From an uncultured archaeon (GTDB taxonomy: Archaea > Hadarchaeota > Hadarchaeia > Hadarchaeales > WYZ-LMO6): a stretch of DNA of 64,000 nt. The notes beneath the pieces were generated by a model. It ran no database searches, was not told where the DNA came from, and was given only the letters and a program-made list of their open reading frames with translations. The stretch lies in assembly GCA_938074535.1 (NCBI GenBank), contig CALJER010000008.1:23523-87522 (forward strand), in the 5' to 3' direction. Both the position numbers and the translations under genes were made by a program. Every line of letters starts with the position of its first letter. The stretch's first letter is position 1. Positions 12,745 through 62,232 of the stretch are shown here, piece by piece.

Positions 12745-13491
12745 TTGGGGGTTCTGCTCGAAGAAGTGGTGACCTTCCCTCCCCCCCTAGAGCCCGTGTG
12801 GGGGGGCTTCCAGAAGCTCTCTTTGCTGGACTACCCCGCAAAGGTGGCCTCGGTGCTCTTCGTGAGGGGGTGCAACTTTCGATGCCCCTTCTGCTACAAC
12901 ACCGAGCTGGTCGGGGGACCGCCCGAAAAGGAGCTCCCCTGGAAGGAGATCCTGGGATACCTGAAGAAGAGGAAGGAGTGGCTGGACGGAGTGGTCATCA
13001 CGGGTGGCGAACCCACCCTCTACTCGGGGCTTCCGGGGTACCTGAGGGAGCTGAAGGGGATGGGGCTGAGCGTGAAGCTCGACACCAACGGCTCCAACCC
13101 GGACATGCTGGGGGAGCTCCTGAGGGAGGGCCTGGTGGACTACGTGGCCATGGACGTGAAGGCGCCGCTGAGGGAGGAGGCGTACGCCAGGGCGGCGGGG
13201 GTGAAGGTCCGCCTGGAGGACGTGAGGAGGAGCCTCTCCCTTCTCCTCTCCTCCGGGGTGGAGTACGAGCTCAGGACCACCGTGGTGCCTACCCTGCTCG
13301 GGGAGAAGGACCTCTTGGAGATAGCGGAGGAGATAAGGGGGGCCAGGAGGTACTACCTGCAGCAGTTCAGGCGCACCTCCACCCACGTGGACGAGCGCTT
13401 CTCCCAGATCCACCCCTACCCCAGGGAGTTCCTGGAGGAGGTCGCGAGGCGGATCTCGGGCTGCTTCGGTAAGTGCGGGGTGAGGGGATGA
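12745..13491 (+). CDS. nrdG: Anaerobic ribonucleoside-triphosphate reductase activating protein (radical SAM)
   Basis: CNFRCPFC cluster and the LLDYPAKVASVLFVRGCN signature. TTG start. Its TGA overlaps the nrdD ATG (ATGA). Confidence 0.8.
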   Translation: MGVLLEEVVTFPPPLEPVWGGFQKLSLLDYPAKVASVLFVRGCNFRCPFCYNTELVGGPPEKELPWKEILGYLKKRKEWLDGVVITGGEPTLYSGLPGYLRELKGMGLSVKLDTNGSNPDMLGELLREGLVDYVAMDVKAPLREEAYARAAGVKVRLEDVRRSLSLLLSSGVEYELRTTVVPTLLGEKDLLEIAEEIRGARRYYLQQFRRTSTHVDERFSQIHPYPREFLEEVARRISGCFGKCGVRG

Positions 13492-15560
13492 TCAAGAAGC
13501 TCAGGAAGAGGGACGGGACGCTGCAGGAGTTCGAGCCGGACAGGATAGGGGAGGCCATAAGGAAGGCGGCGGAGGCGCAGGGGCTCTTGGACTTCGAGGG
13601 GGAGGCGAGGAGGCTGCAGGGGCTGGTGGTGCGCAGGCTGGAGGAGAAGGGGTACGGGGAGGAGAGGCCCCCGGACGTGGAGGGGATACAGGACGAGGTG
13701 GAGGAAGTGCTGAGGGAGGAGGGCTACGGGACGCTGGCGGAGAGGTACCACGAGTACAGGAGGAGGCACGACGAGCTCAGGAGGAGCAGGAGCACGGTGT
13801 TCGACGTGGGGAAGATGGTGGAGGAGTTCATAGGGTACAGGGACTGGAGGGTGAGGGAGAACGCCAACCTCAGGCCTTCTATTTCTTCCATGATGTTCAA
13901 CTCGGCGGGGGCGGTGAACGCCAGGTACCTCCTGGACAAGGTCTACCCGCCGGAGGTCAGCGACGCCCACACGGACGGGGACCTGCACCTCCACGACCTC
14001 TACCAGGGCGTCTGCGGGTACTGCTGCGGGCACTCGATGGAGGACATACTGACGAAGGGGCTGGTGAGCGTGGGGAACAACCCCCACTCCAACCCTCCGA
14101 AGCACCTGGACGTGGCCCTGATGCAGGCGGTGAACTACATAGGGGTGATGACGCAGGAGTGGGCGGGGGCGCAGGCCTTCTCCTGGGTGGACGCCTATTT
14201 GGCGCCCTTCATCAGGGAGGACGGGCTGAGCTACAGGCAGCTCAAGCAGCTCCTCCAGATGTTCGTGTACAACCTGAACGTGACCTCCAGGTGGGGTGGG
14301 CAGAGCCCCTTCTCCAACGTGACGCTGGCCTGCGGGGTGCCGGAGCCCCTGAGGGACAGGCCGGCGGTGGTGGGGGGGAGAACCCTGGACAGGACGTACG
14401 AGGAGTACGAGGAGGAAATAGAGATGTTCGACAAAGCCTTCCTCGAGGTGCTGCTCGAGGGGGACGCAGCGGGCAGGCCCTTCACCTTCCCCATTCCCAC
14501 CTTCGCCATCACCGGGGACTTCCCCTGGGAGGACGGGCTCAGCAGCCTCCTCTTTGGGGTGGCGGCGAAGTACGGGCTGCCCTACTTCCAGAACTTCGTG
14601 AGGAGCGACCTGAGCCCCTGGCAGGTCTATTCCATGTGCTGCAGGCTCTCCCTGGACCTGAGGGAGCTGCAGAGGAACGTGACGGGGGGGCTCTTCGGGT
14701 CCAGCCCGAAGACGGGGAGCGTGGGCGTGGTCACCATCAACCTCTCCAGGGCGGGGTACCTGGCGAAGGGGAGCGAGGAGGAGCTCTTCAGGAGGCTGAG
14801 GTACATGTGCATCCTGGCCGGGAGGGCGCTGGAGCACAAGAGGAGGATCGTGGAGAGGAACATCCAGGCGGGCCTCCTCCCGTACACGAAGGAGTACTTC
14901 GGGGACCTGAGCAGGCACTTCTCCACCATAGGGGTGGTGGGGGGGCACGAGATGTGCCTGAACATGGGGATAGAGGGGGGAATAGCGAGCAGGGAGGGGG
15001 CGGAGCTGTGCAGGAGGGTGCTGGAGTTCCTCAGGGGGGAGTGCAGGAGGCTGCAGGAGGAGACCGGGCACCTCTACAACCTGGAGGCCACGCCGGCGGA
15101 GGGGGTGAGCTACAGGCTGGCAAGGCTGGACAGGAGGAAGTTCGGGGCCTCCATACGCACGAGCGGGGAGAGGGAGCCCTTCTACACCAACTCCACCCAG
15201 CTGCCGGTGGACTCCGACCTGGACCTGGTGGACGCGCTCAGGCACCAGGAGCCCCTCCAGACCCTGTACACGGGGGGAACGGTGTTCCACATCTACCTGG
15301 GAGAGAGCCTGGAGGAGGGGGAGAGCTGCAGGAGCCTCATGAGGAAGGTCACCTCCAGGACCAGGCTGCCCTACTTCACCCTCACGCCCACCTACTCCAT
15401 ATGCGGCGGCCACGGGCTGCTGAGGGGGGAGCAGCCCTCCTGCCCGGTGTGCGGGAGGGAGACGGACGTGTACTCCAGGGTGGTGGGGTACTACCGACCG
15501 GTCAAGAACTGGAACGCAGGGAAGCAGGAGGAGTTCAGGCTGAGGAGGAAATACAGCTGA
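13488..15560 (+). CDS. nrdD: Anaerobic ribonucleoside-triphosphate reductase, class III (glycyl radical enzyme)
   Basis: ATP-cone N-terminus, a C-terminal Zn ribbon (C...C...CPVCG) and the glycyl-radical motif RVVGYYRPV. Confidence 0.9.
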   Translation: MIKKLRKRDGTLQEFEPDRIGEAIRKAAEAQGLLDFEGEARRLQGLVVRRLEEKGYGEERPPDVEGIQDEVEEVLREEGYGTLAERYHEYRRRHDELRRSRSTVFDVGKMVEEFIGYRDWRVRENANLRPSISSMMFNSAGAVNARYLLDKVYPPEVSDAHTDGDLHLHDLYQGVCGYCCGHSMEDILTKGLVSVGNNPHSNPPKHLDVALMQAVNYIGVMTQEWAGAQAFSWVDAYLAPFIREDGLSYRQLKQLLQMFVYNLNVTSRWGGQSPFSNVTLACGVPEPLRDRPAVVGGRTLDRTYEEYEEEIEMFDKAFLEVLLEGDAAGRPFTFPIPTFAITGDFPWEDGLSSLLFGVAAKYGLPYFQNFVRSDLSPWQVYSMCCRLSLDLRELQRNVTGGLFGSSPKTGSVGVVTINLSRAGYLAKGSEEELFRRLRYMCILAGRALEHKRRIVERNIQAGLLPYTKEYFGDLSRHFSTIGVVGGHEMCLNMGIEGGIASREGAELCRRVLEFLRGECRRLQEETGHLYNLEATPAEGVSYRLARLDRRKFGASIRTSGEREPFYTNSTQLPVDSDLDLVDALRHQEPLQTLYTGGTVFHIYLGESLEEGESCRSLMRKVTSRTRLPYFTLTPTYSICGGHGLLRGEQPSCPVCGRETDVYSRVVGYYRPVKNWNAGKQEEFRLRRKYS

Positions 15561-15678
15561 TCACGATCCCCCCACTGACCTCCAAGGGGGTAAAAAGGCG
15601 GGGGCAACATCCCCCTGCGAGGGGGTAAGGTTGCCCCCTGCCTCCCCTCGTGTCGGACGCGCACGCACCCTTACGGCT
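15561..15678. terminator. GC-rich nested hairpins between convergent nrdD and the CooC-like gene
   Basis: GGGGGCAAC...GTTGCCCCC encloses CCCCTgcgAGGGG; also CCCCC-N12-GGGGG. Function unproven. Confidence 0.3.
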
Positions 15679-16413
15679 TCAGGGGGGTAGATACCCCAGT
15701 CTCCGGAGGAGTTCCCCCACCCCCAGCAGGGCCGGGGCATCCCCGCGCAGCTGGAAGATGGTTCGCCCCTCCCTGTCCAGCTCCTCCACCTCTTTGTCCT
15801 CCGGCACCCTCCCAAGGACTTCCATGCCTACAGGTACCTCCACCTCCTCCCCCCCCTTCATCCTGTTCAGAACCAGCCCCGCCCTCCTGTACTTCACCGC
15901 CCCCCTGTCCGCCACCCCCTTTATGGTGAAAGCCACTCCCAGCGACCTGGGAGAGGGGTCGGAGACCAGCAGTAGGTCATCCACCTCCCTCATCACCCTC
16001 CGGTTGATCTGCTCCACCCCGGCCTCCCCGTCTATCACCACCACCTCGAAGCTCCTGGAGACCGAGGTGAGGATCTCCCTCAGCAGCTCGTTGACCCTGC
16101 AGTAGCATCCCTCCTCCTCGGGCCTCCCCATCGCCAGCAGCGAGAATCCCCTCCTCTCCTCCATCACCCCCAGCACCCCGTAGTCCAGGGAGAGGGCGAG
16201 CTCCTCCCGGCTCACCTTTCCCAGGGAGGAGATCCATTCCCTCCTCAGGTCCTCCACCGTCCTCCTCACCTCCACCCCCAGGGCCTGGGAGAGACCCGAG
16301 GAGGGATCCGCATCCACCGCGAGCACCCTCCTCCGGCCACCCTCCACCAGCAGCCGCAGGGAGGCTGAGGCCAGGAAGGTCTTCCCCACGCCCCCCTTCC
16401 CGCAGAAAACCAT
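15679..16413 (-). CDS. CooC/AcsF-family (MinD/ParA-type) P-loop ATPase with CXC metal-binding motif
   Basis: Deviant Walker A CGKGGVGKT near the N-terminus and EEGCYCRVNEL (C-x-C) as in Ni-insertion ATPase CooC. Last gene of the HgdAB-like operon. ATG at 16413 preferred over GTG 16428. Confidence 0.7.
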   Translation of the reverse strand: MVFCGKGGVGKTFLASASLRLLVEGGRRRVLAVDADPSSGLSQALGVEVRRTVEDLRREWISSLGKVSREELALSLDYGVLGVMEERRGFSLLAMGRPEEEGCYCRVNELLREILTSVSRSFEVVVIDGEAGVEQINRRVMREVDDLLLVSDPSPRSLGVAFTIKGVADRGAVKYRRAGLVLNRMKGGEEVEVPVGMEVLGRVPEDKEVEELDREGRTIFQLRGDAPALLGVGELLRRLGYLPP

Positions 16414-16424
16414 CACCCCTTCCC

Positions 16425-17135
16425 TCACTTCTTCCCCTCCCTCAGCATCCTATCCCTTATCGCCCTGAGCTCCGCCACGCTCCCGCACACCTCCCTGTAG
16501 TCGCATCTGTCGCAGTCCAGCGAAACCTCCTCCACCATCTTGCCCACGGCCCCCGCTATCTTCCTGGCCTTCTCCCCAAACCCCCAGAGGGCCCTCACGC
16601 CCTCCTCGCAGGTGGAGAAGACCACCTCCGCGGAAGACAAGGGGAAGCCGGAGCGCAGGGCCCTCAGGAGGGCCCCCCCCACCACGGAGAGGGAGAGGCC
16701 CCTCTCCACCGCCTCCCTGCTCACCCTGCTCCAGGCCTTCAGCTGGGAGGGCAGGCCCCTGACCATGTACCCCCTGAGCCCGATCCTGAGCGGAGCCAGG
16801 TTCAGCCTCCGGTACTCCTCATCCCTGACCTCCCTCGATTCCACCAGACAGAGCTGGGCGAAGGGGACCACGCCCCTCAGCCGCGGCAGGTCCTCCCCCC
16901 ACAGGCTCACCCTCCCCTCCTCCACCAGCCCGGGAGTCTCGGTGAGGAGAACCGAGGAGAAGGAGGGGAGCTCCGGCGGACCGAGCTCCACCCACGTATC
17001 CTCCTTCAGAACCACGCCGGATTCCCCCAGGAAGCCGTCCGGGTCGAGGGGCGTGAGCCTCCTCACCCTCCCCCCGCTTTCTCCCCTTTTCAGAAGCTCC
17101 CGCAGGGACCTCAGGTCCTCATCGAAGAGCTTCAT
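16425..17135 (-). CDS. Hypothetical protein with C-terminal CDRCDYREVC motif
   Basis: No family recognised. Placed between activator ATPase 1 and the CooC-like gene with 4-nt overlaps on both sides. Confidence 0.45.
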   Translation of the reverse strand: MKLFDEDLRSLRELLKRGESGGRVRRLTPLDPDGFLGESGVVLKEDTWVELGPPELPSFSSVLLTETPGLVEEGRVSLWGEDLPRLRGVVPFAQLCLVESREVRDEEYRRLNLAPLRIGLRGYMVRGLPSQLKAWSRVSREAVERGLSLSVVGGALLRALRSGFPLSSAEVVFSTCEEGVRALWGFGEKARKIAGAVGKMVEEVSLDCDRCDYREVCGSVAELRAIRDRMLREGKK

Positions 17136-17904
17136 CCGCCCTCTCCCGCGCGAGCAGGCAGGCCCCGTAGGCCCCCGCCAGGATGGGGTCCAGCGGGAGC
17201 CTCCTCACCTTCCTCCCCAGTTGCTCCTCCAGGGCCCTCACGAAGCTCTCCAGCCTGCTCACCCCTCCGGCCACCACCACCTCCCCCCTCATCCCCACCT
17301 TCCTCACGATGGAGGAGACCCTCCCCGCGATGGCCCTGGTGACGGCGGCCACGACGTCCTGCACCTCCTCCCCCTCGTTCAGGAGGGCCACCACCTCGCT
17401 CTCGGCGAAAACCGTGCACTGGGAGGTGATGGAGAGTTTCTTGGTGGAGCGAGACACCGCCTCGTCCCACTCCTCCAGCCCTATGCCCAGGGCTTCCCCC
17501 AGAAGCTCCAGGAACCTCCCCGCCCCGGCCGCGCACCTGTCGTTCGTCCCGTAGTCCACCACCCTTCCCCCCTCCATCACCGCCACCCTGGTGGTGTTGG
17601 CCCCCACCTCCACCACCGTTCCGGCCTCGGGAACCAGGGAGCTGCACGCCCTGGAAAGGCAGAGAAGGACGGGTCTCTCCTCCCTGACGAAGTCCAGACC
17701 CCTCACCCTCTCCCCCGTCCCCACGCAGTAGGCCACCTCCTCCCACCTCCTCCCGGCACCCTCCAGCGCGAGGGCGAAGGCACGCTCCGCCGTCTCCCTG
17801 GCCCTCGGCCCGGTCTCCAGGACGGCGTGGCCCAGAAGGGAACCATCTTCCATGAGGAGGGCCTTCACCCTCCCGCTCCCCACGTCCAGTCCTCCCACCA
17901 GCAT
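17119..17904 (-). CDS. CoA-substrate-specific enzyme activase (HgdC/BcrA/BcrD/BadF/BadG ATPase family), copy 1
   Basis: ASKHA fold; DRCAAGAGRFLE and CTVFAESEV cluster-ligand cysteines. Its start overlaps the stop of copy 2 (TGATG). Confidence 0.8.
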   Translation of the reverse strand: MLVGGLDVGSGRVKALLMEDGSLLGHAVLETGPRARETAERAFALALEGAGRRWEEVAYCVGTGERVRGLDFVREERPVLLCLSRACSSLVPEAGTVVEVGANTTRVAVMEGGRVVDYGTNDRCAAGAGRFLELLGEALGIGLEEWDEAVSRSTKKLSITSQCTVFAESEVVALLNEGEEVQDVVAAVTRAIAGRVSSIVRKVGMRGEVVVAGGVSRLESFVRALEEQLGRKVRRLPLDPILAGAYGACLLARERADEALR

Positions 17905-18686
17905 CAGCTTCCCCCCACCTTCTGCCTGGCGAAGAGGGCCGCCCCGAGGGCCCCCACCAGCTGCGGGTCGAAGTCCAGCCTGAGGAGGGGGACCCCCAGC
18001 ATCTCCTCCAGGTACCTCACCACCCCCACGTTCTTCGCCACCCCTCCGGAGAGGACCACCTCCCTCTCCACCCCCATCCTCGAGGCCAGCGCCTTCACCC
18101 TCGCCGCCATGGCCTGATTCACACCCGCCGCCACATCCTCGGCGCTGGCACCCTCAGCCAGCTGGGAGAGGACCTCCGACTGGGCGTAGACCGCACACAC
18201 GTTGGTGATGGGTATGGGCCTCCTGGAGGAAAGGGAGAGCCTTCCCAGCTCCTCCACTCCCACTCCCAGCGTCTTGGCCATCAGCTCCAGGAACCTCCCC
18301 GTTCCCGCCGCGCACTTGTCGTTCATGACGAAGTTCAGCAGCCTTCCCTCCCCGTCCACCCTTATCACCTTGCAGTCCTGCCCCCCTATGTCTATCACCG
18401 TCCTCACGGAGGGAAGGAGCCAGTGGGCACCCTTTCCGTGGCAGGAGATCTCCGACACGTTCTCCCCCGCGAAAGGAATCCTCACCCTGCCGTAGCCCGT
18501 CCCCACGCAGTAGGCCACCTCCTCCCACCTCCTCCCCGCCTTCCTCAGCGCCTCCTCCATCACCTCCCTGGCCGAGAGCTCCGGTCTGGGTTTGACCCTC
18601 CTCACCTCGTGGGAGAGGATGCGCCCGTCCTCCAGCAGGACGGCCTTGGCGGTGAGGGAGCCCACGTCGCAGCCTGCCACCAGCAT
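17904..18686 (-). CDS. CoA-substrate-specific enzyme activase (HgdC/BcrA/BcrD family), copy 2
   Basis: MNDKCAAGTGRFLE and CAVYAQSEV motifs. Tandem paralog of copy 1; by eye the two differ by more than 50%. Confidence 0.8.
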   Translation of the reverse strand: MLVAGCDVGSLTAKAVLLEDGRILSHEVRRVKPRPELSAREVMEEALRKAGRRWEEVAYCVGTGYGRVRIPFAGENVSEISCHGKGAHWLLPSVRTVIDIGGQDCKVIRVDGEGRLLNFVMNDKCAAGTGRFLELMAKTLGVGVEELGRLSLSSRRPIPITNVCAVYAQSEVLSQLAEGASAEDVAAGVNQAMAARVKALASRMGVEREVVLSGGVAKNVGVVRYLEEMLGVPLLRLDFDPQLVGALGAALFARQKVGGS

Positions 18687-18687
18687 G

Positions 18688-20055
18688 CTAGCCCAGTCCC
18701 ATCGTTTCGTTGAACTCCAAAATCCTGCGCTTGATCTCCGAAACGGGGCTGACCCTGAAGTCCCAGGAGTCAGCCTCCAGCCTGAGGCAGGGCAGGCCCG
18801 TCTCCCTCTGGAGCGCCCTTATGAAGGCCTGGAAGCCCCCCCAAGTGTTCTTGCAGGCAGGATGGCCGGCGAACACGAAGCAGTCCCCTCCCCACTGCTC
18901 CACGCACCACACGTAGTCCTCCAGCCACTGGTCGGGCAGATCCACAGGCCCCCTCTGCTGCCTGGTCATGGGGTAGCTCCAGCACCTCTGCGCCAGCCCC
19001 TCCAGCATGGTGTCCAGGGAGGAGGTGTCGATGGGTTTCTCCGCGTGGAAGAGGGTGAGGACGTCCACCACGTAGCTCATCCCGTTCTCCTCCAGCCAGA
19101 ACCAGAGGTCCATGCTGGGGGGGTAGAAGCCCGTGTACACCCAGATCTGCCTGATGCGCTCCTCCGGCTTCGCTCCTTCCCCCTTCCTGAGCCTGTCCTT
19201 GGAGGCCTCCAGCACGGCCTCGAAGACCCTGGTCCCCTGCGGGGTCCCCACCGAGCTGAACTTCACGCCCTGGAGGAAGATGTTGAAGGAGGAGTGGACG
19301 GGGTTGGGGCGGGCCCTCTTCAGGTCATTTATCTCCAGGTAATACTTCCTGCACTTCTCGCTCTCCTCCACCACCTCCCTCAGCCTCTCCTCCTCCAGTT
19401 TCTTCCCGGCGAACTCCTCCAGCCTCCTCACCTGGTGCCTGTACTCCTTCGTGTAGTAGTCGAAGGCCCTCTCCCCGTGGTAGGTGGGACAGTCTATCCC
19501 CAAATAGGGAACACCCAGGCGGACCGCCATGTACTCGTAGAGCTTGGAGTTGGCGTCGCAGCTTCCTGGGGCGGCGGTAACCACCAGATCCGGGCGCAGG
19601 CCCAAGCCCTTCAGGATGGCCCCGCAGGCTGCCCTCTGGGAGGTGCACATGGTCTCGAGCAGTCCCTCCTCCACGCTCCAGTCGAAGTAGACGTGGGGAT
19701 CCTCGAGGAAAATGGTGGCGAAGGAGGTGAGGACCTCCGGCACCAGCGGGACGAGGTCCAAAGCGTAAAAGACCTCCGGGGCGGTGTTGAAGCTGGAGAG
19801 CACCACCTTCTTTCCCTCCTCCCTCGCCCCCCTCAGCATCCCGAGATACCAGGCCGCCCACCTAGAGACCTCCAGGGCCACCCTCCGGATGGCGGGGTCG
19901 GAGAGGAAGAGATGCCTCAGGACCTCGGCCTGGGAGGGAACGGCCGCCACCAGGTCCTCCATTTCCCTCTCCGTAACGTCCTCGGGGATGGAGGAAGCCG
20001 TGGAAAGAAGGATGAAGAGCCTCTCCTCGAGCGGCAGCTGCCTAGCCTCTTCCAC
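18688..20055 (-). CDS. 2-hydroxyacyl-CoA dehydratase / benzoyl-CoA reductase BcrBC-like (HgdAB/DCCP family) subunit B
   Basis: HgdB/BcrC-family length and conserved Cys pattern (CTSQRAACG..., GSCDANS). GTG start at 20055. Confidence 0.75.
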   Translation of the reverse strand: MEEARQLPLEERLFILLSTASSIPEDVTEREMEDLVAAVPSQAEVLRHLFLSDPAIRRVALEVSRWAAWYLGMLRGAREEGKKVVLSSFNTAPEVFYALDLVPLVPEVLTSFATIFLEDPHVYFDWSVEEGLLETMCTSQRAACGAILKGLGLRPDLVVTAAPGSCDANSKLYEYMAVRLGVPYLGIDCPTYHGERAFDYYTKEYRHQVRRLEEFAGKKLEEERLREVVEESEKCRKYYLEINDLKRARPNPVHSSFNIFLQGVKFSSVGTPQGTRVFEAVLEASKDRLRKGEGAKPEERIRQIWVYTGFYPPSMDLWFWLEENGMSYVVDVLTLFHAEKPIDTSSLDTMLEGLAQRCWSYPMTRQQRGPVDLPDQWLEDYVWCVEQWGGDCFVFAGHPACKNTWGGFQAFIRALQRETGLPCLRLEADSWDFRVSPVSEIKRRILEFNETMGLG

Positions 20056-20377
20056 CAGCCTCCCTCCTCTCGGCCAGCCTCCTCAGCTCCCTCTCCTCCA
20101 GCCTCGGGCGGAGGTAAATCGCGTACCCACCCTGGGTCTTCTCCACCATGAGCTTCCATCCGCCCTTCTCCCCCTCCTCCCTCTCCGACTGTCCTCTCAC
20201 CACCCTGTCCAGCATCTCCTCCATCCCCTCCAACAGCTCCCTGGGAAGTCTGGACCTGAAGTCGGGGCAGATCCTGGTGCTGGCGGGGTTCTCCTCGCTC
20301 CCCTTCAGCTGACACCTTATCCTCTCCCACTCCATCCACGCGGCCCAGAAGCAGTCACCGCACCTAACGGGGCTCAT
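20042..20377 (-). CDS. Small Cys-containing protein (C-x2-C-x14-C-x13-C) between the two HgdAB-like subunits
   Basis: MSPVRCGDCFWAAWMEWERIRC...RIC motif. Its ATG overlaps the upstream stop (ATGA at 20374-20377); its stop lies 14 nt inside the next gene. Confidence 0.45.
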   Translation of the reverse strand: MSPVRCGDCFWAAWMEWERIRCQLKGSEENPASTRICPDFRSRLPRELLEGMEEMLDRVVRGQSEREEGEKGGWKLMVEKTQGGYAIYLRPRLEERELRRLAERREAGGRG

Positions 20378-21507
20378 CTCCCCAGCCTCTCCAGGAAGGC
20401 CTGGATTCTGGTCCTGATCCTCCCCACCTCCGCCAGCGGGCCGTACTGCCTCTCCAGGAGCAGAGTGGGCACCCCCTCCTCCTCCAGCCTCCTGGCGAAG
20501 AGGGTGTTGTCTCCTCCATGCGTGTCGCAGAACTTCATGTGCTCCAGGACCACTCCTTCCACCCTCCATTCTTTGATGAGCCTCCTCAAAAAGTTGAGCT
20601 TCCTCTCGAACTCCCCATAGGTCCTGGCGCAGGGTACGTGGTAGTAGTACCTCCTCACCAGGGCCTCAAAGGGGTCCCCCCCCTCTTCCACCATGTCCAC
20701 GATGGACCTCATGCCGAAGCAGAGGGAGTCCGTGACCACCAGGCCCCCCTGCCCCTCTATCACCCTCACCAGCTCCGGATCGTCGTTCACGCTCCCCACG
20801 AGCATCAGCCTGGTTCCGGAGTACTCCTTTCCCCTCTCCTCCACTTCCTCCAGCGCTTCCTCCAGCAGGCGGTTGTAGACCTCCCTTCTCACAGCCGTGC
20901 TCGCCACGTGGAGGGCCAGGGCCTCCTGCCCGGAAACAGGGGGTCTCTCCCTCTTTCTCCTTTCGTTGAGCTCCAGGAGGAGCCTCCTCCCCCTGTTGTA
21001 CTCCCTGATGGCCTCCTCCAGCTTTTCGGGAGAGAGCTCCGTCCCGAAGTGCCCCTCCATGGCCTTCAAAAGGGAGAAGATCTCGCCCCGGTAGAACTCC
21101 AGCCCGTGCTCCGTGAGGGTGTGGGGGATCCCAAAGTAGTAGAAGAAGGGGGGGAGGTTCCCCGCCGCCTTCCAGCAGTCGTACATCCTCCTCACATGAT
21201 CGCAGGTGCGGGAGATCACGGCCCCATCCAGGAAGTCGTACCTTCCCTCCAGCACCAGCTGCAGGCAGCAGCGCGTGTAGCTGCAGTTGACGGGACCGTA
21301 CCAGGCGTCCGCCAGGGAGGTTCCTGAGCAACCCGTCCCCCTGATCCTGAAGGGAAGCATGCCCAGGGCGTGGACGAGCTCTTCCGGGAAGTAGCTGCAG
21401 GTGTAGCCCACGACCCTCCCTCCTCCCCTCTTCCACTCTTCCAGCAGGGGATTGGAGATCCCCGAGGAGACCCGCTCCAGGGCTTCTAGACTTCCCACTT
21501 CAAACAT
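20374..21507 (-). CDS. 2-hydroxyacyl-CoA dehydratase / BcrBC-like (HgdAB family) subunit A
   Basis: GYTCSYFPEEL...GTGCSG...CSYTRCC motifs of the HgdA/BcrB family. ATG 21507 (MFEVGSLEAL) preferred; ATG 21522 also possible. The upstream ORF extension was rejected. Confidence 0.75.
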   Translation of the reverse strand: MFEVGSLEALERVSSGISNPLLEEWKRGGGRVVGYTCSYFPEELVHALGMLPFRIRGTGCSGTSLADAWYGPVNCSYTRCCLQLVLEGRYDFLDGAVISRTCDHVRRMYDCWKAAGNLPPFFYYFGIPHTLTEHGLEFYRGEIFSLLKAMEGHFGTELSPEKLEEAIREYNRGRRLLLELNERRKRERPPVSGQEALALHVASTAVRREVYNRLLEEALEEVEERGKEYSGTRLMLVGSVNDDPELVRVIEGQGGLVVTDSLCFGMRSIVDMVEEGGDPFEALVRRYYYHVPCARTYGEFERKLNFLRRLIKEWRVEGVVLEHMKFCDTHGGDNTLFARRLEEEGVPTLLLERQYGPLAEVGRIRTRIQAFLERLGR

Positions 21508-21556
21508 GGTTCTTGCGGGCATAAATCTTTTTTTTTGAAGGGGCCAAGAAAAACCG
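21508..21556. promoter_or_regulatory. Divergent promoter region (CATAAATCTTTTTTTTT) between the HgdA-like operon and the saccharopine-DH-like operon
   Basis: AT-rich stretch 20-30 nt from both start codons. Confidence 0.4.
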
Positions 21557-22753
21557 ATGGGAGATAAGAAGGTGGTGGTCCTGGGAGGGGGCGGGGTGGT
21601 GGGAAGAACCGCCGTGAAGGACCTGGCCAAGAGCGGGGTCTTCTCGGAGGTGGTGGTGGCCGACAAGGAGGTGGAGAAGGCGAGGGAGCACCTGGAGGGA
21701 GTTCCCCGCCTCTCCTTCGTGAAGGCAGACCTCACGGAGTTGTCCATCCTCAGGGAGGTGATAAAGGGGGCGGACGTGGTTCTGAACACCGTAGGACCCT
21801 TTTACAAGTTCGGCCCCTTGCTCACGAGGGAGGCCATACGGACCGGGGTGAACTACGTGGACATCTGCGACGACTACGAGGCCACGCTGGAGCAGCTGAA
21901 GATGGACGAGGAGGCGAGGAAGAGGGGTGTGACCGTCCTCACGGGCATGGGCTCTTCACCCGGCGTGGCCAACGTGGTGGCCAAGTTCTGCTCCCAGTTG
22001 CTGGACCAGCCGGAGGAGATCCACATCTACCACATCCACGGGGGGGAGCCGGAAGAGGGGCCCGGGGTGATCTACCACCGCATCCACTACATGACGGGAA
22101 AAATCCCCATGCTGAAGGATGGGAAGATGGTGTACTTCGGGTTCTTCAGTGAGGAAGGGAGAAGGGAAATAGAGGAAGTGGACTTCTACGAGCCCATAGG
22201 GGTGGCGAAGGTTTACCCCTACCCGCACCCGGAGACCATCACCCTCCCCAGGTACATCCCGGGCCTCAGGAAGGTCACCAACAAAGGGTCCGTCCTACCC
22301 CTGGAATACTACGAACTGCTGCGGGAGGCCGTGAAGATGGGTTTAGCCGATGAGAAGCCCCTGAAGGTGGGAGGGGCCTCCGTGGCCCCCATCGACTTCC
22401 TGGTCTCCTTCGTCCTCTCCAAGAGGAAGGAATATGCGAGCAGGCTGCCTGAACCCGTGGGTTGCCTGAAGATCGTGGTGAGGGGGAGAAAGGGGGGAAA
22501 GAGGATGGAGTACAGGTTCGCCATCCCCTCCAGGGGTGCGGGTATGGGGGAGGGAACGGCCATTCCCGCCTCGGTGGGCACGCAGATGGTGGCCAGAGGG
22601 GAGATCGAGGAGAAAGGGGTCCTCCCCCCGGAGGCCTGCGTGGATCCCATGAAATTCTTCGAGGAGGCGAGGAGCAGGGAGGGGATGGGCGGCGTCAGGA
22701 TCATCTTCGAGAGCGTGGACGAGGAGGGGAGGGTGACCAGCATACCCCTTTGA
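21557..22753 (+). CDS. Saccharopine dehydrogenase-like NAD(P)-binding oxidoreductase
   Basis: VVVLGGGGVVGRTAVKDL Rossmann motif and Sacchrp_dh-like layout. Confidence 0.7.
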   Translation: MGDKKVVVLGGGGVVGRTAVKDLAKSGVFSEVVVADKEVEKAREHLEGVPRLSFVKADLTELSILREVIKGADVVLNTVGPFYKFGPLLTREAIRTGVNYVDICDDYEATLEQLKMDEEARKRGVTVLTGMGSSPGVANVVAKFCSQLLDQPEEIHIYHIHGGEPEEGPGVIYHRIHYMTGKIPMLKDGKMVYFGFFSEEGRREIEEVDFYEPIGVAKVYPYPHPETITLPRYIPGLRKVTNKGSVLPLEYYELLREAVKMGLADEKPLKVGGASVAPIDFLVSFVLSKRKEYASRLPEPVGCLKIVVRGRKGGKRMEYRFAIPSRGAGMGEGTAIPASVGTQMVARGEIEEKGVLPPEACVDPMKFFEEARSREGMGGVRIIFESVDEEGRVTSIPL

Positions 22754-22790
22754 CCCAAGCCTTTTTTTCCTCCAGAAAACCACTCTTTTG

Positions 22791-24089
22791 ATGTTCAAGT
22801 GGAGGGAAAAGGAGTACGAGGAGCTTGAGGCTCAGCCCGAGGCCCTCCCCGAGGGGGTGGATCCCGAGGAATACGTCATCGCCACCTACTTCCTCTCCCT
22901 CCCCTCCGCCCTGGATCCCTGGGAGGTGGCTAGGGCCCTGGCCATAGAGCAGAGCACGGGAACCTGGGTGCCCGTTCCCGGGGAGACCCCCGAGGTGAGG
23001 AAGAAGCACGTGGCCAAAGTGGTGGGACTGTACGAGGCCCCCTATCCGGAAGTCCTCTCCCCCACGGAGGCCAGGGAGAGGAACTATGTGGTGCAAATCG
23101 CCTTCCCGCAGGTGAATTTCGGGAAACAGATCCCCATGCTCCTCTCCACGGTGGCGGGGAACCTGATGTGCTGGGAGAAGATCAAGCTCCTGGACCTCCG
23201 CTTCCCCAAGAGCTTCGTGGAGGGCTTCGGGGGCCCCAAGTTCGGGATAGAGGGGATAAGGAAGCTGCTGGGAGTGGAGGAGAGGCCCCTGATCAACAAC
23301 ATGATCAAGCCCTGCACCGGCTTTACACCCGACGTGGGTGCGAGGCTGGCCTACGAAGCGGCGGTAGGGGGAGTGGACATGATCAAGGACGACGAGCTAC
23401 TGGGCAACCCCTCCTTTAACCCCATAGAGGAGAGGGTGCCGAAGTACATGGAGGCTCTGGACAGGGCGAACAGGGAAAAGGGGGAAAAGACCCTCTACAC
23501 GGTCAACATCACGGACGAGGCCTCCAGGGTGATGGAGAACGCGGACAGGGCCATAGAGCTTGGGGCGAACGCCCTCATGATCAACTATCTCACCGCCGGA
23601 ATCTCCCTGCTCAGGGAGCTGGCGGAGGATCCAAGCATCAACGTCCCCATCCTGGCCCACATGGACTTCTCCGGCACCATGTACGTCTCCCCCTACTCAG
23701 GCCTCTCCTCCTCGCTCCTGCTGGGGAAGCTGCCCAGGCTGGCGGGTGCCGACATCTTGGTCTACCCAGCACCCTACGGGAAGGCCCCCTTCATGAAGGA
23801 GAGATACGTGAGGATAGCCCACCACCTGACCTTTCCCCTCTACCACCTCCGCCCCACCTTCCCCATGCCCAGCGGGGGGATCACGCCCTCCATGGTGCCC
23901 GAGGTGGTGGGGGATCTGGGGAAGGACATCGTGATAGGGACGGGGGGAGGGATCCACGCCCACCCCATGGGTCCCAGGGCCGGAGCCAGGGCCTTCAGGC
24001 TGGCGGTGGAGGCGGTGATGAGGGGGATGAGCCTGCAGGAGATGGCCAAGGAGCACGAGGAGCTGAGGGTGGCCCTGCAGATGGGCTGA
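22791..24089 (+). CDS. RuBisCO-like protein (RLP, form IV-like); probably not a carboxylase
   Basis: RuBisCO large-subunit fold motifs are present: IKP (K175), GGVDMIKDDE (K201/D203/E204). K177 is replaced by Cys (MIKPCTG) and the HIHR region reads LAHMD (R295 lost), judged by eye. ATG at 22791. Confidence 0.8.
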   Translation: MFKWREKEYEELEAQPEALPEGVDPEEYVIATYFLSLPSALDPWEVARALAIEQSTGTWVPVPGETPEVRKKHVAKVVGLYEAPYPEVLSPTEARERNYVVQIAFPQVNFGKQIPMLLSTVAGNLMCWEKIKLLDLRFPKSFVEGFGGPKFGIEGIRKLLGVEERPLINNMIKPCTGFTPDVGARLAYEAAVGGVDMIKDDELLGNPSFNPIEERVPKYMEALDRANREKGEKTLYTVNITDEASRVMENADRAIELGANALMINYLTAGISLLRELAEDPSINVPILAHMDFSGTMYVSPYSGLSSSLLLGKLPRLAGADILVYPAPYGKAPFMKERYVRIAHHLTFPLYHLRPTFPMPSGGITPSMVPEVVGDLGKDIVIGTGGGIHAHPMGPRAGARAFRLAVEAVMRGMSLQEMAKEHEELRVALQMG

Positions 24090-24098
24090 GGGGGTTCC

Positions 24099-25598
24099 TT
24101 GGGGTACATCCTGGCCCACGACCTGGGGACGGAGCTCAACAAGGCCGCCCTGGTGGACGAGGAAGGGAGGATAGTCGCCTACTGTACCCAGGAGTACCCC
24201 GTCTCCTATCCCAGGCCGGGGTGGGCGGAGCAGGATCCGGAGCTCTGGTGGGAGGCCGTCAGGGAAACCACGAAAAAGGTGCTGGAGCTGGCGGGGATCA
24301 AACCGGGAGAGGTGGAGGCGCTGGTCTTCGACAGCATGATGTACACGCTGGTGGCGGTGGACCGGGGAGGAAGACCGCTCAGGCCGGCCATCCTCTGGCT
24401 CGACACCAGGGCGAAGGCCCAGGCGGAGGAGCTGATGGGAAGCCTGGACCTGCTGGGGATGCTGGAGAGGGGGGTGATCCCGCCCACCTCGGCCAAGGAC
24501 ATCACCCCGAAGATCCTGTGGGTGAAGCAGGAGGAGCCGCACGTTTTCGAGAAGGCCTGCTTCATCGACAGCAAGGACTACCTGGTCCACCGGTGCGTGG
24601 GGGAGTTCTACACCGACTGGAGCTGCGCCAGCCTCTTCTGCCTCTTCAACTTCAGGGAGAAGAGGTGGGAGGAGGAGCTGGTGGAGGAAATGGGCCTTTC
24701 CCTGGAAAGGCTCTCCAGGCCCGTGAAGAGCACGGAGGTGGTGGGGAACCTCACGGAGGAAGCCTCCAGGGAGCTTGGACTGCCCAGGAAGGTGGAGGTG
24801 GTGTGCGGGTCCGGGGACGCCACCGCGGTGGCGGTGGGAGCGGGGGGACCCCACCTGTACGTGGGGACCTCGGCCTGGATAGGTGCCCACGTGGAGGAGC
24901 CCCTCTTCGACCTGACCGGCGTGGGCAGCATCTGCTCCGCCGATCCCTCCAGGTTCTTCCTGATAGGGGAGATGGAGAACGCCGGGGCCTGCCTGAAGTG
25001 GTTCAGGGAGACCCTGGCCAGGGAGGAGAAGGAAAGGGCGGAGAAGGAGGGAAAAGGCCCCTACCAGCTGCTGGACGAGCTGGCCTCCGGTGCGGAGGCC
25101 GGGTCGGGGAAGCTCCTCTTCCTCCCCTGGATGATGGGGGAGAGGTGCCCCTTCACCCAGTCCACCGCCAGGGGGGCCTTCCTGAACCTCACCTTCGGGC
25201 ACACCAAAGGGCACCTGGTGAGGGCGGTGCTGGAAGGGGTGGCCTACCACATGAGGTGGATCCTGGAGGTGGTGGAAGGGATGGGGCTCTCCCTCCCCTC
25301 CATCAGGGCCTGCGGCGGAGGGGCTAAGAGCGGGGTCTGGCTCCAGATCTTCGCCGACGTGATGGGGAGGAAGGTGGAGAGGGTCTCCTCCCCGCACCAC
25401 GTGGGCTCGCTGGGAGCCGCCACCCTTGCCAGGGTAGGTCTGGGAAAGACGGACTTTTCCTCGGCGGAGAGGTCCGTGAAGGTGGAGGGGGAGTTCCTCC
25501 CCTCGGAGGAAAACCGGGACATCTACGACAGGATGTACGAGGAGTTCAGGGGGATGCAGGGGAGGCTGTCGGAGGTCTTCGAGCGCCTCAACACCTAG
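24099..25598 (+). CDS. FGGY-family carbohydrate kinase (xylulokinase/ribulokinase-like)
   Basis: YILAHDLGTE N-terminus, GWAEQDPELWW and GTSAWIG motifs. TTG start 9 nt after the RLP stop. Confidence 0.8.
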   Translation: MGYILAHDLGTELNKAALVDEEGRIVAYCTQEYPVSYPRPGWAEQDPELWWEAVRETTKKVLELAGIKPGEVEALVFDSMMYTLVAVDRGGRPLRPAILWLDTRAKAQAEELMGSLDLLGMLERGVIPPTSAKDITPKILWVKQEEPHVFEKACFIDSKDYLVHRCVGEFYTDWSCASLFCLFNFREKRWEEELVEEMGLSLERLSRPVKSTEVVGNLTEEASRELGLPRKVEVVCGSGDATAVAVGAGGPHLYVGTSAWIGAHVEEPLFDLTGVGSICSADPSRFFLIGEMENAGACLKWFRETLAREEKERAEKEGKGPYQLLDELASGAEAGSGKLLFLPWMMGERCPFTQSTARGAFLNLTFGHTKGHLVRAVLEGVAYHMRWILEVVEGMGLSLPSIRACGGGAKSGVWLQIFADVMGRKVERVSSPHHVGSLGAATLARVGLGKTDFSSAERSVKVEGEFLPSEENRDIYDRMYEEFRGMQGRLSEVFERLNT

Positions 25599-28854: not shown

Positions 28855-28939
28855 CGCCGGGGGAGGGATTTGAACCCTCGGGACCCAAAGGGTCACACGC
28901 TCTCAAGGCGTGCGCCTTACCTGGCTTGGCTACCCCGGC
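28855..28939 (-). tRNA. tRNA-Ser (anticodon UGA), class II with long variable arm
   Basis: Folded by hand: acceptor GCCGGGG/CCCCGGC, anticodon loop CTTGAGA, 16-nt variable arm, T-loop TTCAAAT, discriminator G. Confidence 0.8.
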
Positions 28940-42628: not shown

Positions 42629-42703
42629 CGGGCCTGGTGGGATTCGAACCCACGACTCCCGGCTTAAAAGGCCGGTGCGCTAGCCAGACTGCGCTACAGG
42701 CCC
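42629..42703 (-). tRNA. tRNA-Lys (anticodon UUU)
   Basis: Folded by hand: acceptor GGGCCTG/CAGGCCC, anticodon loop CTTTTAA, T-loop TTCGAAT, discriminator G. Confidence 0.85.
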
Positions 42704-54501: not shown

Positions 54502-55029
54502 TCAGCGGAGGGGCTCCACACCCTCCAAATCGCTCAATTCCCCCCTAGTCTCCTTCGCCCAGACCGCCCTCACCCTCATCCCGATGTGCACTTCTTTCGG
54601 ATCCGCACCTATCAACAGAGTGCCCAAGTTGGAATCGGCGCCGTCGAATTTGACGAAAACGGGAATAATAACCTCATCCTCCTGGATGAGGCCCTGCTCC
54701 ACGGGATCCATCCCCAGCACCTTGATCTTCCCCCTTTTGATGGGCGGGCTTATGATGAAGCAGGTGACGGTACCTACGTCGGAAACCACCACCCTACCCT
54801 CCATCTTCCTGTGGCACCTCCCGCACAGGTTCCTGGGAGGCACTATCACCTTCCCGCATCCGAAGCACAGAGAGCCCACCAGCTTCCTCTGTTTTAAACC
54901 CTCCACGAATTCTTCGAGGAGTCTGTTGGCCTTCCAGGTGTAGGCCCCTATGTTCCACTCCCCCTCCACGCCCAGGGTTTCCGGTCTTTCCTCTTTGAGG
55001 TATGGCATCCCCTCACCTCGGAGAGTCAC
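54502..55029 (-). CDS. DUF35 (Zn-ribbon + OB-fold) protein, partner of thiolase-like enzymes
   Basis: CFGCGKVIVPPRNLCGRC rubredoxin-like ribbon followed by an OB fold. Confidence 0.75.
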   Translation of the reverse strand: MTLRGEGMPYLKEERPETLGVEGEWNIGAYTWKANRLLEEFVEGLKQRKLVGSLCFGCGKVIVPPRNLCGRCHRKMEGRVVVSDVGTVTCFIISPPIKRGKIKVLGMDPVEQGLIQEDEVIIPVFVKFDGADSNLGTLLIGADPKEVHIGMRVRAVWAKETRGELSDLEGVEPLR

Positions 55030-56254
55030 CCAGCACCGTCACCGTGGTGTAGTTCGTCACTCCCCCCCATCCGTGGGCCACGGCGTTCCTGACCTCCTTC
55101 GGGACCTGGTGCTCCTCGGCCTTTCCCATCACCTGCAGAGCGGCTTCCAGGATCCTCTGTAAGGCGGAAGACCCTATGGCGTTCGTGGCGAGAACCCCCC
55201 CGGAGGGATCCGTCGGCATTCTGCCGTCGATCTCCATTTCCCCCTCCTCGAGGGCCACCCAGGCCTTTCCCTCGTCAAAAAGCCCCAGCCTCTCGGCGAA
55301 GATGAGCTCCTGACTTGGGAAGGGCTGGTAAATCTCAGCCACATCTATCTCCCTCTTCGGATCCGTTATTCCCGCCATCCTGTAGGCCTTCATCGCGGAA
55401 ACCCTGCACCCCATCTGCTCGGAGGCGTCAAGGATGCCCACTCCCCCGTAGCTCTCGCTCATGAGCTGGTTTTCCTCGTCGGAGTAGGACGCAAGCCCCT
55501 TAACCCAGGCTTTGTCCTCTTTCTTCTTTGCGATATCCTCGGCCGCCACCACAATGGCAGAAGCGCCATCACTCGCGGGGCAGATGTGTCCGAACCTGAA
55601 GGGATACGCCACCATCTCGGTCTTTGCTATGTCCTCCGGGGTGCACCCTGGCCACTGAAGGTGTGCGTACTTGTTCTTCGCGGCGTTTCTCCTGCTCTTT
55701 GCAGCCACCATGTCGAAGTGCTCGATTCTACACCCGGATCTGTGCATGTAGAACATCGCCTGGTAGACGGCGACCCCCGCAGCGGCCCCCACGACGGTGG
55801 TGGCCACCAGACTCTTGAGGTTCATCCCGTAGTTGAAGGCATGGAAGAAATTGGCAAGAGCCACGTGCAGGAGACCGGTGGTTGCCCCGGGCTCTTTGCT
55901 GTCGGAATGCTTCTCCCAGGCCACGGCCAGGACTTTGTCGTACATCCCCGAGGCCACCGCATAGATGGCCCCCTGCCCCACCGATCCCCCTGTGGTTCCA
56001 CCCGTGGCTATTCTCATAACGGGCTTTCCCGGGGCGCCTATCCAATCCCCAATCCACTGGTCTGGCTGGGCGACGCCGCCGAACCCCTGCATGTTCCCCA
56101 CCACGATGGCGTCAATCTCCTCTGGGGTTACCTGGGCATCCTCCATGGCCCTCCAGGCTGCCTCTTCAATCATTTCAGGCAGGCTGACATCCCTTCTCTT
56201 GCTCGAATGCTTGGTCTGTCCGCATCCTATTATGGCGACATTCCTGAACATCAT
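55013..56254 (-). CDS. Thiolase-like protein (SCP-x/Ltp-type fold) lacking the nucleophilic Cys and the C-terminal His/Cys catalytic residues
   Basis: Thiolase-fold glycine-rich motifs. At the N-x2-C-x-SG position it reads RIATGGTTGG. The GHP position reads TNAIGSS and the GMC position reads GWGGVTNY, judged by eye. Confidence 0.7.
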   Translation of the reverse strand: MMFRNVAIIGCGQTKHSSKRRDVSLPEMIEEAAWRAMEDAQVTPEEIDAIVVGNMQGFGGVAQPDQWIGDWIGAPGKPVMRIATGGTTGGSVGQGAIYAVASGMYDKVLAVAWEKHSDSKEPGATTGLLHVALANFFHAFNYGMNLKSLVATTVVGAAAGVAVYQAMFYMHRSGCRIEHFDMVAAKSRRNAAKNKYAHLQWPGCTPEDIAKTEMVAYPFRFGHICPASDGASAIVVAAEDIAKKKEDKAWVKGLASYSDEENQLMSESYGGVGILDASEQMGCRVSAMKAYRMAGITDPKREIDVAEIYQPFPSQELIFAERLGLFDEGKAWVALEEGEMEIDGRMPTDPSGGVLATNAIGSSALQRILEAALQVMGKAEEHQVPKEVRNAVAHGWGGVTNYTTVTVLGDSPR

Positions 56255-57396: not shown

Positions 57397-57400
57397 AGGC

Positions 57401-57877: not shown

Positions 57878-57965
57878 AAAAAGTCGCCTAACCCCTTTAA
57901 TAAGCCTTTCGGAAGCCGGCGGTCCAAGAGCTATTTAAGCCCCAACACGGAGAGCTGTTTGGGGA
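57878..57965. promoter_or_regulatory. Divergent promoter region with two TATA-like boxes (CTTTAATAAG, GCTATTTAAG)
   Basis: AT boxes about 25-35 nt from the acyl-CoA synthetase ATG and about 40 nt from the DUF35 start. Confidence 0.4.
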
Positions 57966-59975: not shown

Positions 59976-59982
59976 ATACTGC

Positions 59983-61206: not shown

Positions 61207-61219
61207 AAGCATCACCCGT

Positions 61220-62140: not shown

Positions 62141-62232
62141 CTCGGACTCACCACTTTTCTTCTCACCGCTACTTAAATTTGCGGACAGGATCGGGAAGAA
62201 AAGCTTTTTATACTGCGGGGCCCGGGAAAAAT

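Follow-up and report, generated by a model that had tools for sequence, protein, structure and literature searches.

A benzoyl-CoA reductase-like operon of Candidatus Hadarchaeales linked across phyla to an acetyl-CoA synthase-domain protein and a CooC-like ATPase

Why would an enzyme of the benzoyl-CoA reductase (BCR) type be encoded together with relatives of acetyl-CoA synthase (ACS) and of the ATPase that loads it with nickel? This question is raised by a seven-gene operon (g1–g7) on the minus strand of a 64,000-nucleotide stretch of contig CALJER010000008.1 (the window; GC ~63%) from a Candidatus Hadarchaeales archaeon. Proteins identical or near-identical to those of the window were found in Candidatus Hadarchaeales metagenome-assembled genomes (MAGs). 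BCRs, 2-hydroxyacyl-CoA dehydratases (HADs) and double-cubane-cluster proteins (DCCPs) catalyse reactions that are among the most reducing in biology, and we know of no enzyme of these three kinds that needs an ACS-like protein or a CooC-type ATPase. We propose, with a probability of roughly 0.45, that the operon encodes an ATP-driven low-potential Fe-S reductase that has the architecture of the Bzd-type BCR and acts on a different substrate, together with an ACS-derived three-cysteine protein loaded by a CooC-like ATPase.

Seven co-directional open reading frames (ORFs) were read from the sequence at positions 15679–21507. All seven genes of the initial annotation were present, and homology searches agreed with its assignment of HgdAB/Bcr-like, activator-ATPase and CooC-like families (PF06050, PF01869 and CooC1 3KJE, respectively). 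g1 matched PF06050 with an E-value of 2.6e-91, and its closest solved structure was BzdN (8S02_B, E 1.5e-51). The [8Fe-9S] double cubane of BzdN is held by Cys36/73/100/263/293/327 (PMC11971306). In a pairwise alignment, Cys37/75/102/263/293/327 of g1 fell on these six ligands; among 16 family members from other phyla, five of the cysteines were retained in 16/16 and Cys37 in 88%. g1 is predicted to carry an [8Fe-9S] double-cubane electron relay. g3 also matched PF06050 (E 1.3e-53), and its matches to solved relatives were weak (DCCP, E 9e-09; HadB, E 3e-07; BzdO, E 1.2e-04). Exactly three cysteines, Cys137, Cys166 and Cys401, were invariant among 22 family members of g3. The catalytic [4Fe-4S] cluster of BzdO is bound by Cys95/128/380 and a water; Glu65 and His131 act as the acid/base pair (PMC11971306). 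Cys166 of g3 was aligned on Cys128 of BzdO, and the position of His131 was occupied by an Asn conserved throughout the family in the motif C-D-x-N-S/A-K; the alignment places His131, whereas Glu65 and Trp46 were not reliably alignable. The cysteines of the second cubane were absent from g3, e.g., Phe stood at the equivalent of BzdN Cys36. Of the DCCP and Bcr ligand cysteines, whose presence had been left to be checked, g1 has the full set of six and g3 has three. We predict g3 to be a divergent O-like catalytic subunit with a three-Cys [4Fe-4S] site.

The two ATPases differed in their state of conservation. g4 matched PF01869 with an E-value of 2.5e-62, scored 270 bits on TIGR00241 (cut-off, 125) and retained the cluster cysteines Cys125 and Cys164 as well as the DIGGQD phosphate-2 motif. 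g5 (PF01869, E 1.2e-40) was 45% identical to g4, which is the better-conserved paralogue. In g5, Cys124 and Cys163 were invariant; the phosphate-2 motif was degenerate (VEVGANTT) family-wide, including the positional orthologues in survey loci L009–L041. g5 was always located immediately upstream of g6. Because g5-type proteins have lost DIGGQD yet retain both cluster cysteines, the sequences suggest that g4 and g5 form an asymmetric heterodimer with a single working ATP site. The ATPase cysteine motifs were thus present as initially described, as was CDRCDYREVC of the 236-aa protein g6; the latter was found at residues 208–217 of 236 and is not terminal.

We compared the core with characterized relatives. 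In common with BzdNOPQ of Aromatoleum sp. CIB (BzdNO, 8S02), the operon has two unlike HGD-D subunits and two unlike BcrAD ATPases; g1 shares the six [8Fe-9S] cysteines of BzdN, g3 shares the three-Cys [4Fe-4S] site of BzdO, and g4/g5 resemble the Bzd ATPases in being two different subunits with two cysteines each for a bridging [4Fe-4S] cluster. However, g3 is barely alignable with BzdO and has Asn in place of the catalytic His131, the ACS-like and CooC-like genes have no counterpart among the Bzd subunits, and aromatic-pathway genes were absent near the operon. DCCP/DCCP-R of Carboxydothermus hydrogenoformans (6ENO, 7YZM) shares the superfamily, the ATP-driven electron injection and the double-cubane ligands (with g1); DCCP is also the best solved match of g3, with which it shares a C-D motif after the second cysteine. 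In contrast to the operon, each subunit of the homodimeric DCCP contains a double cubane, and one homodimeric ATPase serves the protein. HadBC/HadI (3O3M) is likewise an HGD-D heterodimer with a 3-Cys catalytic cluster, and some relatives of the operon have acyl-CoA dehydrogenase neighbours; unlike the operon, however, the HAD beta subunit has no double cubane, and a single homodimeric activator is used catalytically. The NCBIfam scores were in line with this distance: BzdN, 172.4 against a cut-off of 453.8; BzdO, 25.5 against 448.6; BzdQ (g4), 220.6 against 380.2; the double-cubane family NF040772, 176.9 for g1 and 50.1 bits for g3 against 350; HadC, 149 against 700; and HadB, 43 against 750. 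The core proteins fell below every NCBIfam equivalog cut-off for the Bzd, Bcr, Had and double-cubane families. Judged by these comparisons, the core has the Bzd architecture but is orthologous to none of Bzd, Had and DCCP. The initial annotation had favoured a BCR-like arrangement, in which the HGD-D subunits and the ATPases both come as unlike pairs, over HgdAB with an HgdC homodimer, and this holds. Its DCCP alternative does not, as only g1 has the six cysteines and the system is not a homodimeric DCCP.

We next considered g6. This protein matched Pfam CdhC (PF03598) with an E-value of 1.2e-05 and scored 29.6 bits on the cdhC model TIGR00316 (cut-off, 355.95). A profile of the g6 family matched residues ~329–488 of bacterial ACS, and the corresponding region of archaeal CdhC, with an E-value of 1.4e-16. 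The AlphaFold model of g6 had a pLDDT of 93.9, and a Foldseek search of the PDB with this model returned 23 matches at E<=0.001, all of which were ACS chains; the next match had E>1. Sequence and model together indicate that g6 is a stand-alone homologue of the middle (A2, CoA-binding) domain of ACS/CdhC. In the ACS of Clostridium autoethanogenum, the middle domain makes most of the contacts with acetyl-CoA and Trp405 stacks on the adenine (bioRxiv 10.1101/2024.08.05.606187). In the profile alignment, ACS Trp405 and Arg407 corresponded to W135 and R137 of g6, which were conserved in 36/42 and 40/42 sequences, respectively, and the motif W-x-R-(V/I)-S-K-x-A was common to both families. The catalytic Arg383 and His386 of ACS were not conserved in g6. 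A long C-terminal helix in g6 is followed by C208-x2-C211-x5-C217; these three cysteines, invariant in 42/42 sequences, are the only conserved ones, and the protein ends 19 residues beyond the third. The helix aligned to ACS up to residue 499, and the Cys motif of g6 begins four residues later. The cubane motif of the ACS A-cluster, which we take to be C506-x2-C509-x8-C518-x9-C528, suggests by position that the g6 motif is equivalent to the start of the ACS cubane to within ~3 residues. Hence, g6 resembles ACS (AcsB/CdhC) in the A2 fold, the adenine-stacking Trp and a Cys-x2-Cys after a long helix at near-equal spacing, and differs in having neither the A1 domain nor the A3 body within its 236 aa. 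g6 had been described only as a Cys-motif protein, which is correct as far as it goes; its ACS homology had escaped recognition. With this homology, the picture becomes that of a BCR-type enzyme that has recruited a pair of proteins resembling ACS and AcsF.

The g6 family was visible only to sensitive searches. Word-indexed homologue searches returned Hadarchaeales alone and a family profile returned 11 proteins; an exhaustive HMMER search revealed the family, with 363 representative clusters of g6-like proteins (~240 aa) at E<=1e-10. Database names for these proteins were "hypothetical protein", "carbon monoxide dehydrogenase" and "CO dehydrogenase/acetyl-CoA synthase beta subunit", and their hosts were Oscillospiraceae, Lachnospiraceae, Clostridium sp., Eubacteriales, Actinomycetota and Deltaproteobacteria MAGs. 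Single g6 clusters at 90% identity occurred on up to 927 contigs. One metagenomic protein (P0018, 308 aa) was a g6-like protein naturally fused to a C-terminal 2x[4Fe-4S] ferredoxin domain.

The closest solved relative of g7 was CooC1 (3KJE), with an E-value of 2.2e-16 from the single sequence and a full-length alignment, in which GCYCRVN of g7 fell on QCYCREN of CooC1. A g7 family profile of 17 members gave 92.6 bits for CooC1, 61.6 for MinD, 53.7 for ArsA and ~25 for NifH. In the 17 aligned members, the deviant Walker A motif CGKGGVGKT and the GCYC motif were invariant, including C108 and C110. By these scores, g7 is closer to CooC than to MinD, ArsA or NifH; the MinD-type ATPase of the initial annotation thus groups with CooC and keeps its CXC. 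CooC1 and AcsF share with g7 the deviant Walker A with its signature lysine and the CXC context (GCYCxxN vs QCYCREN); unlike them, g7 is encoded with a BCR-type enzyme and an ACS-domain protein and not with carbon monoxide dehydrogenase/ACS. AcsF is the CooC-type partner of ACS and inserts nickel into it with ATP. To our knowledge, all characterized CooC-family members insert nickel and not Fe-S clusters. In type-1 loci (defined below), g7 also had an invariant Cys just before the P-loop (Cys9, window 16402–16404). This residue was rejected as a universal extra ligand, being absent from CooC1 and from the type-2 CooC-like relatives (AVSGKGG / AVVGKGG).

Is the association of g6 and g7 with the reductase a peculiarity of the window? 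We surveyed one genome per species with a g6-based locus scan and tblastn with the seven window proteins; the locus scans were made with narrower subset alignments of the g6 family. The arrangement of the window (type 1) was found at 33 genome loci (numbered with L) in at least six phyla: Hadarchaeota, Dehalococcoidales, one Methanobacteriota archaeon, Geothermincolia and other Actinomycetota, Desulfobacterota/Thermodesulfobacteriota, and Bacillota. The order was N-like, O-like (sometimes duplicated), ATPase, ATPase, g6 and g7, and g7 directly followed g6 in 30/33 loci, the exceptions being L016, L019 (in which the contig ends at g6) and L031 (with a partial g7 match only). The pairwise identities of the components co-varied with r of 0.82–0.94, uncorrected for species phylogeny, and were highest for g6–g7 and g1–g3.

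A distant branch of g6 (~26% identity) defined type 2, in which the order was CooC-like, N-like (with six Cys), O-like (~505 aa), a single ATPase, a membrane peptide of 52–66 aa and g6. At least 577 type-2 relatives were obtained in a metagenome scan, many of them from human-gut assemblies. Of the 40 informative loci, i.e., those with >=5.5 kb upstream of g6, 33 contained the complete gene set and the other seven were variants. Among these, L044 carried a permuted complete set headed by a His-rich CsoR/RcnR-family regulator, L061 a reduced CooC-ATPase-g6 set beside an OYE-type enoate reductase, and L052 CooC-g6 beside FeoB and MntP. No type-2 protein reached an NCBIfam equivalog cut-off. Between the two types the gene order is shuffled and the gene set retained: g6 always directly follows an ATPase gene, and the position of the CooC gene varies. 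Trios of ATPase, g6 and CooC, or pairs of CooC and g6, were also seen without a local N/O pair, some of them in Actinomycetota. The conserved set consists of N, O, ATPase(s), the ACS-domain protein and the CooC-like ATPase, and the arrangement is far beyond chance. Functional coupling is strongly indicated because this gene set survives complete reordering across bacteria and archaea. The link between the reductase and its extra genes, which had been claimed from the window alone, was therefore kept across phyla, and, with all equivalog cut-offs missed, the operon is no well-described BcrABCD or HgdABC orthologue.

The second of the extra Cys-motif proteins fared differently. g6 belongs to the conserved system; the homologues of the 111-aa g2 were confined to Hadarchaeales in homologue searches and in the 33-locus comparison. 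g2 had no Pfam or NCBIfam match, and its AlphaFold model was of low confidence (pLDDT 67). Its four cysteines, all invariant, are spaced C6-x2-C9-x12-C22-x14-C37 and not C-x2-C-x14-C-x13-C as first given. g2 is a lineage-specific add-on inserted between the N-like and O-like genes.

Several observations were made at the type-2 loci. The single-pass membrane peptide (L042 9801–10001, L044 11574–11741, L045 4544–4702 and L046 570–728) adjoins the ATPase gene and lies between the ATPase and g6 in 3/4 loci, which hints that the gut version of the complex may be membrane-associated. The regulator at L044 5992–6360 is a CsoR/RcnR/FrmR-family repressor with a His-rich N-terminal tail, HEHTHGPGHEHAHEHIHGHSHSHEAHKH, and an x-C-H-C-type fingerprint; it is possibly a sensor of metal (Ni or Cu). 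In L061 (1200–6416), aconitase X, a 468-aa protein and an OYE-type enoate/2,4-dienoyl-CoA reductase precede CooC-ATPase-g6 in place of N/O, and ~10 other loci (e.g., L101 1978–4038) have a similar OYE-type reductase downstream of g6.

The neighbouring genes gave no consistent clue to the substrate overall. An acyl-CoA dehydrogenase gene lay just upstream of the cluster in Dehalococcoidales, Methanobacteriota and Geothermincolia loci, and the flanks in Actinomycetota contained genes for a CoA ligase, a MaoC hydratase and a short-chain dehydrogenase. Because these genes adjoin the cluster, the substrate in several non-gut lineages is probably a CoA thioester. Among the neighbours of gut type-2 loci, no CoA-metabolism genes were recognizable. 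The genes that act downstream of benzoyl-CoA reduction (dienoyl-CoA hydratase, 6-hydroxyacyl-CoA dehydrogenase and ring-opening hydrolase) were not recognized among the conserved neighbours, and the flanks in Hadarchaeales, Actinomycetota and the gut species represent lineage synteny. In the Dehalococcoidales, Methanobacteriota and Geothermincolia loci, an internally repetitive helical protein of ~430–550 aa with no Pfam match lies between the acyl-CoA dehydrogenase and N-like genes (L013 783–2252, L011 631–1917, L012 2231–3892, L029, L034, L035 and L041); it is absent from the window.

From the homologies, ligand sets and gene linkage observed above, we infer a complex, a metal, an electron path and a type of substrate as follows. 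The operon would encode one multi-subunit enzyme of the BCR/HAD/DCCP superfamily that works like a class I BCR, on a substrate that is not benzoyl-CoA reduced by the Bzd mechanism. The [8Fe-9S] double cubane of g1 would relay or store electrons, and the three-Cys [4Fe-4S] cluster of g3, with its free iron, would be the reaction site. The g4/g5 heterodimer, bridged by a [4Fe-4S] cluster and having one degenerate ATP site, would inject electrons uphill. g6 and g7 may represent a two-gene module from the ACS system that joined this core in evolution, with g6 made up of the CoA/adenine-binding middle domain of ACS followed by the first three of the cysteines that hold the A-cluster cubane. Because g6 and g7 mirror ACS and the nickel-inserting AcsF, we propose that the Cys3 site of g6 receives a metal centre from a g7 dimer at the expense of ATP, as ACS does from AcsF; nickel would be the leading candidate by homology, or else an Fe-S cluster. 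The matured g6 would work with the ATPase module, either in electron entry or in presenting CoA or a ligand, because g6 follows an ATPase gene, trios without N/O occur, and a ferredoxin fusion exists. Electrons might then pass from g6 to the g4/g5 cluster and, upon ATP hydrolysis, to the g1 [8Fe-9S] cluster and the g3 catalytic cluster.

Several points weigh against this proposal. The profile of the 95 C-terminal residues of g6 gave a non-significant match to ACS (E 0.65–1.2) and left the Cys motif unaligned; its equivalence with ACS Cys506/509 is a matter of position. A true A-cluster is impossible in g6 because it has neither the Cys-Gly-Cys nickel site nor the fourth cubane cysteine. In addition, a plain electron-carrier cluster would normally need no CooC-type ATPase, the ferredoxin fusion is known from one protein cluster, carried by two short contigs, a metal regulator was met in one locus only (L044), and in L016 and L029 two N/O sets share one g6/g7. 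The suggestion of nickel draws on homology and that one regulator only; we place nickel involvement somewhere between unlikely and an even chance. The stronger statement, i.e., that the Cys3 centre of g6 is a Ni-Fe-S centre and that the operon defines a nickel-dependent branch of the BCR/HAD/DCCP superfamily, seems to us attractive but doubtful.

The main rival explanation is that g6 and g7 are assembly factors only, a scaffold and insertase that build or repair the [8Fe-9S] or the open-site [4Fe-4S] cluster with no nickel. We consider it unlikely on balance, but it accounts for much. Every N-like partner keeps the six double-cubane cysteines, no nickel-binding motif was evident in g1 or g3, g6 and g7 occur away from N/O in some Actinomycetota and beside FeoB/MntP metal-transport genes in one locus, and the double-cubane reviews mention no maturation system. 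The sharing of one g6/g7 pair by two N/O sets is equally compatible with an assembly factor and with a subunit common to both sets. However, the characterized CooC-family members, as far as we know, all insert nickel, and the tight g5-g6-g7 coupling together with the constant ATPase-g6 adjacency suggests that these proteins are stoichiometric partners. This explanation is further weakened by the observation that BzdNO produced in E. coli acquires its [8Fe-9S] cluster with no help of this kind (PMC11971306). The same result tempers the initial suggestion of a dedicated insertion of Ni or an unusual Fe-S cluster, which may hold but goes beyond what was observed.

A different possibility is that the operon encodes a ketyl-radical dehydratase of the 2-hydroxyacyl-CoA type that feeds enoyl-CoA to an acyl-CoA dehydrogenase. 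The acyl-CoA dehydrogenase gene upstream of the cluster in three lineages, the CoA-related flanks in Actinomycetota, and the alignment of g3 to HadB, which was about as good as to any solved relative, are consistent with such an enzyme. Nevertheless, all six double-cubane cysteines are present in the N-like subunit, whereas HAD beta subunits have lost this set (PMC11971306), type 1 follows the stoichiometric BCRs in having two distinct ATPases in place of one catalytic activator, the HadB and HadC scores were far under their cut-offs, and gut type-2 loci provide no recognizable CoA metabolism; a dehydratase is thus improbable in our view. We give far less credit still to an ordinary Bzd-type BCR of aromatic degradation with the extra genes as incidental remnants of the Wood-Ljungdahl pathway, even though g1 is nearest to BzdN, g4 scored ~220 bits on BzdQ, the four-subunit architecture agrees and MAG studies routinely label such genes BCR. 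The BzdN, BzdO and BzdQ equivalog cut-offs were missed widely, the g3-BzdO similarity is marginal with His131 replaced family-wide, the downstream genes went unrecognized, and the system is abundant in gut Clostridia. In addition, the linkage of g6/g7 through complete reordering excludes an incidental neighbourhood.

The initial annotation knew of no described pairing of this kind, and the open-access full-text literature likewise yielded no description of a BCR/HAD-type enzyme paired with CooC-like and CdhC-like proteins. Papers on isoprene reductase, the SAO locus, mlp clusters and Anaerosomatales were considered as descriptions and found to be unrelated. Within that literature the accessory pair is unprecedented, and the system is uncharacterized, widespread and experimentally tractable. 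A conserved system of five to six genes that joins the BCR and ACS worlds suggests that a cofactor, a maturation route or a mechanism of electron entry still awaits description. The system is found widely in uncultured lineages of the subsurface and is very common in Oscillospiraceae and Lachnospiraceae assemblies from the human gut, and its substrate may matter for gut and subsurface metabolism. The labels "CO dehydrogenase/acetyl-CoA synthase beta subunit" and benzoyl-CoA reductase can mislead metabolic reconstructions of MAGs, and mis-annotated g6-like genes may inflate the inferred Wood-Ljungdahl capacity. If the centre were indeed nickel, the operon would represent a new kind of nickel enzyme system extending from hot-spring archaea to abundant human-gut Clostridia.

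The features of the operon are listed in Table 1.

Table 1. Genes of the operon and its flanking signals, in window positions
Feature	Position	Strand	Remarks
g1, BzdN-like subunit	20374..21507	-	377 aa, ATG at 21507; alternative ATG 21522 = 382 aa
g2, Cys4 protein	20042..20377	-	111 aa
g3, predicted divergent O-like catalytic subunit	18688..20055	-	455 aa
g4, BcrAD/HgdC-type ATPase	17904..18686	-	260 aa
g5, second BcrAD-type ATPase	17119..17904	-	261 aa
g6, stand-alone ACS/CdhC middle-domain homologue	16425..17135	-	236 aa
g7, CooC-family P-loop ATPase	15679..16428	-	249 aa from GTG 16428; alternative ATG 16413
Divergent intergenic region 5' of g1	21508..21556	-	A-rich TATA-like TTCAAAAAAAAAGATTTATG; read from sequence
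Terminator-like GC hairpin then TTTTT	15600..15615	-	pattern scan and direct reading

The junctions were tight throughout: g1/g2 overlap by 4 nt in ATGA (20374–20377), g2/g3 by 14 nt, g4/g5 by 1 nt (TGATG), g5/g6 by 17 nt and g6/g7 by 4 nt (GTGA), and g3/g4 are separated by 1 nt (TAG C ATG). The coupled overlaps first reported (ATGA, TGATG and 4–14 nt) were thus largely borne out, except that g3/g4 has a gap and g5/g6 a longer overlap. The 5' edge of the operon had been set at 21556, which is the base before the divergent plus-strand gene; the edge lies instead at the start of g1. The A-rich divergent spacer upstream of the cluster measured 35–50 nt, and its TATA-like region is a probable archaeal promoter giving a near-leaderless transcript. 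A sigma-70 scan of the promoter region gave no match, as expected for an archaeon. The GC hairpin with its T-run, located ~65 nt past the g7 stop and ahead of the convergent nrdD, is a putative terminator.

Three divergent plus-strand genes at 21557–25598 encode a saccharopine-dehydrogenase-like protein, a form III RuBisCO large subunit and an FGGY sugar kinase. This trio was syntenic in all Hadarchaeales relatives and is probably a nucleotide/pentose salvage set outside the operon. On the other side, nrdD (13473–15560, plus strand) encodes an intein-free anaerobic ribonucleotide reductase of 695 aa; in related Hadarchaeales contigs, nrdD contains an intein with a LAGLIDADG endonuclease (1007–1200 aa) or is split (L004 6162–9764, L005 11515–14553 and L006 11515–14538). 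Rfam matches in the window were limited to two tRNA genes (28855–28939 and 42629–42703, minus strand). At 54505–64000, the GC content falls to ~0.54–0.56 in an island of acyl-CoA metabolism comprising DUF35/ChsH2 zinc-ribbon proteins, two SCP-x-type thiolases, an AMP-forming CoA ligase, an acyl-CoA dehydrogenase, an NMO-family oxidoreductase and a BKACE enzyme; this island could have been transferred or could be a source of CoA substrates.

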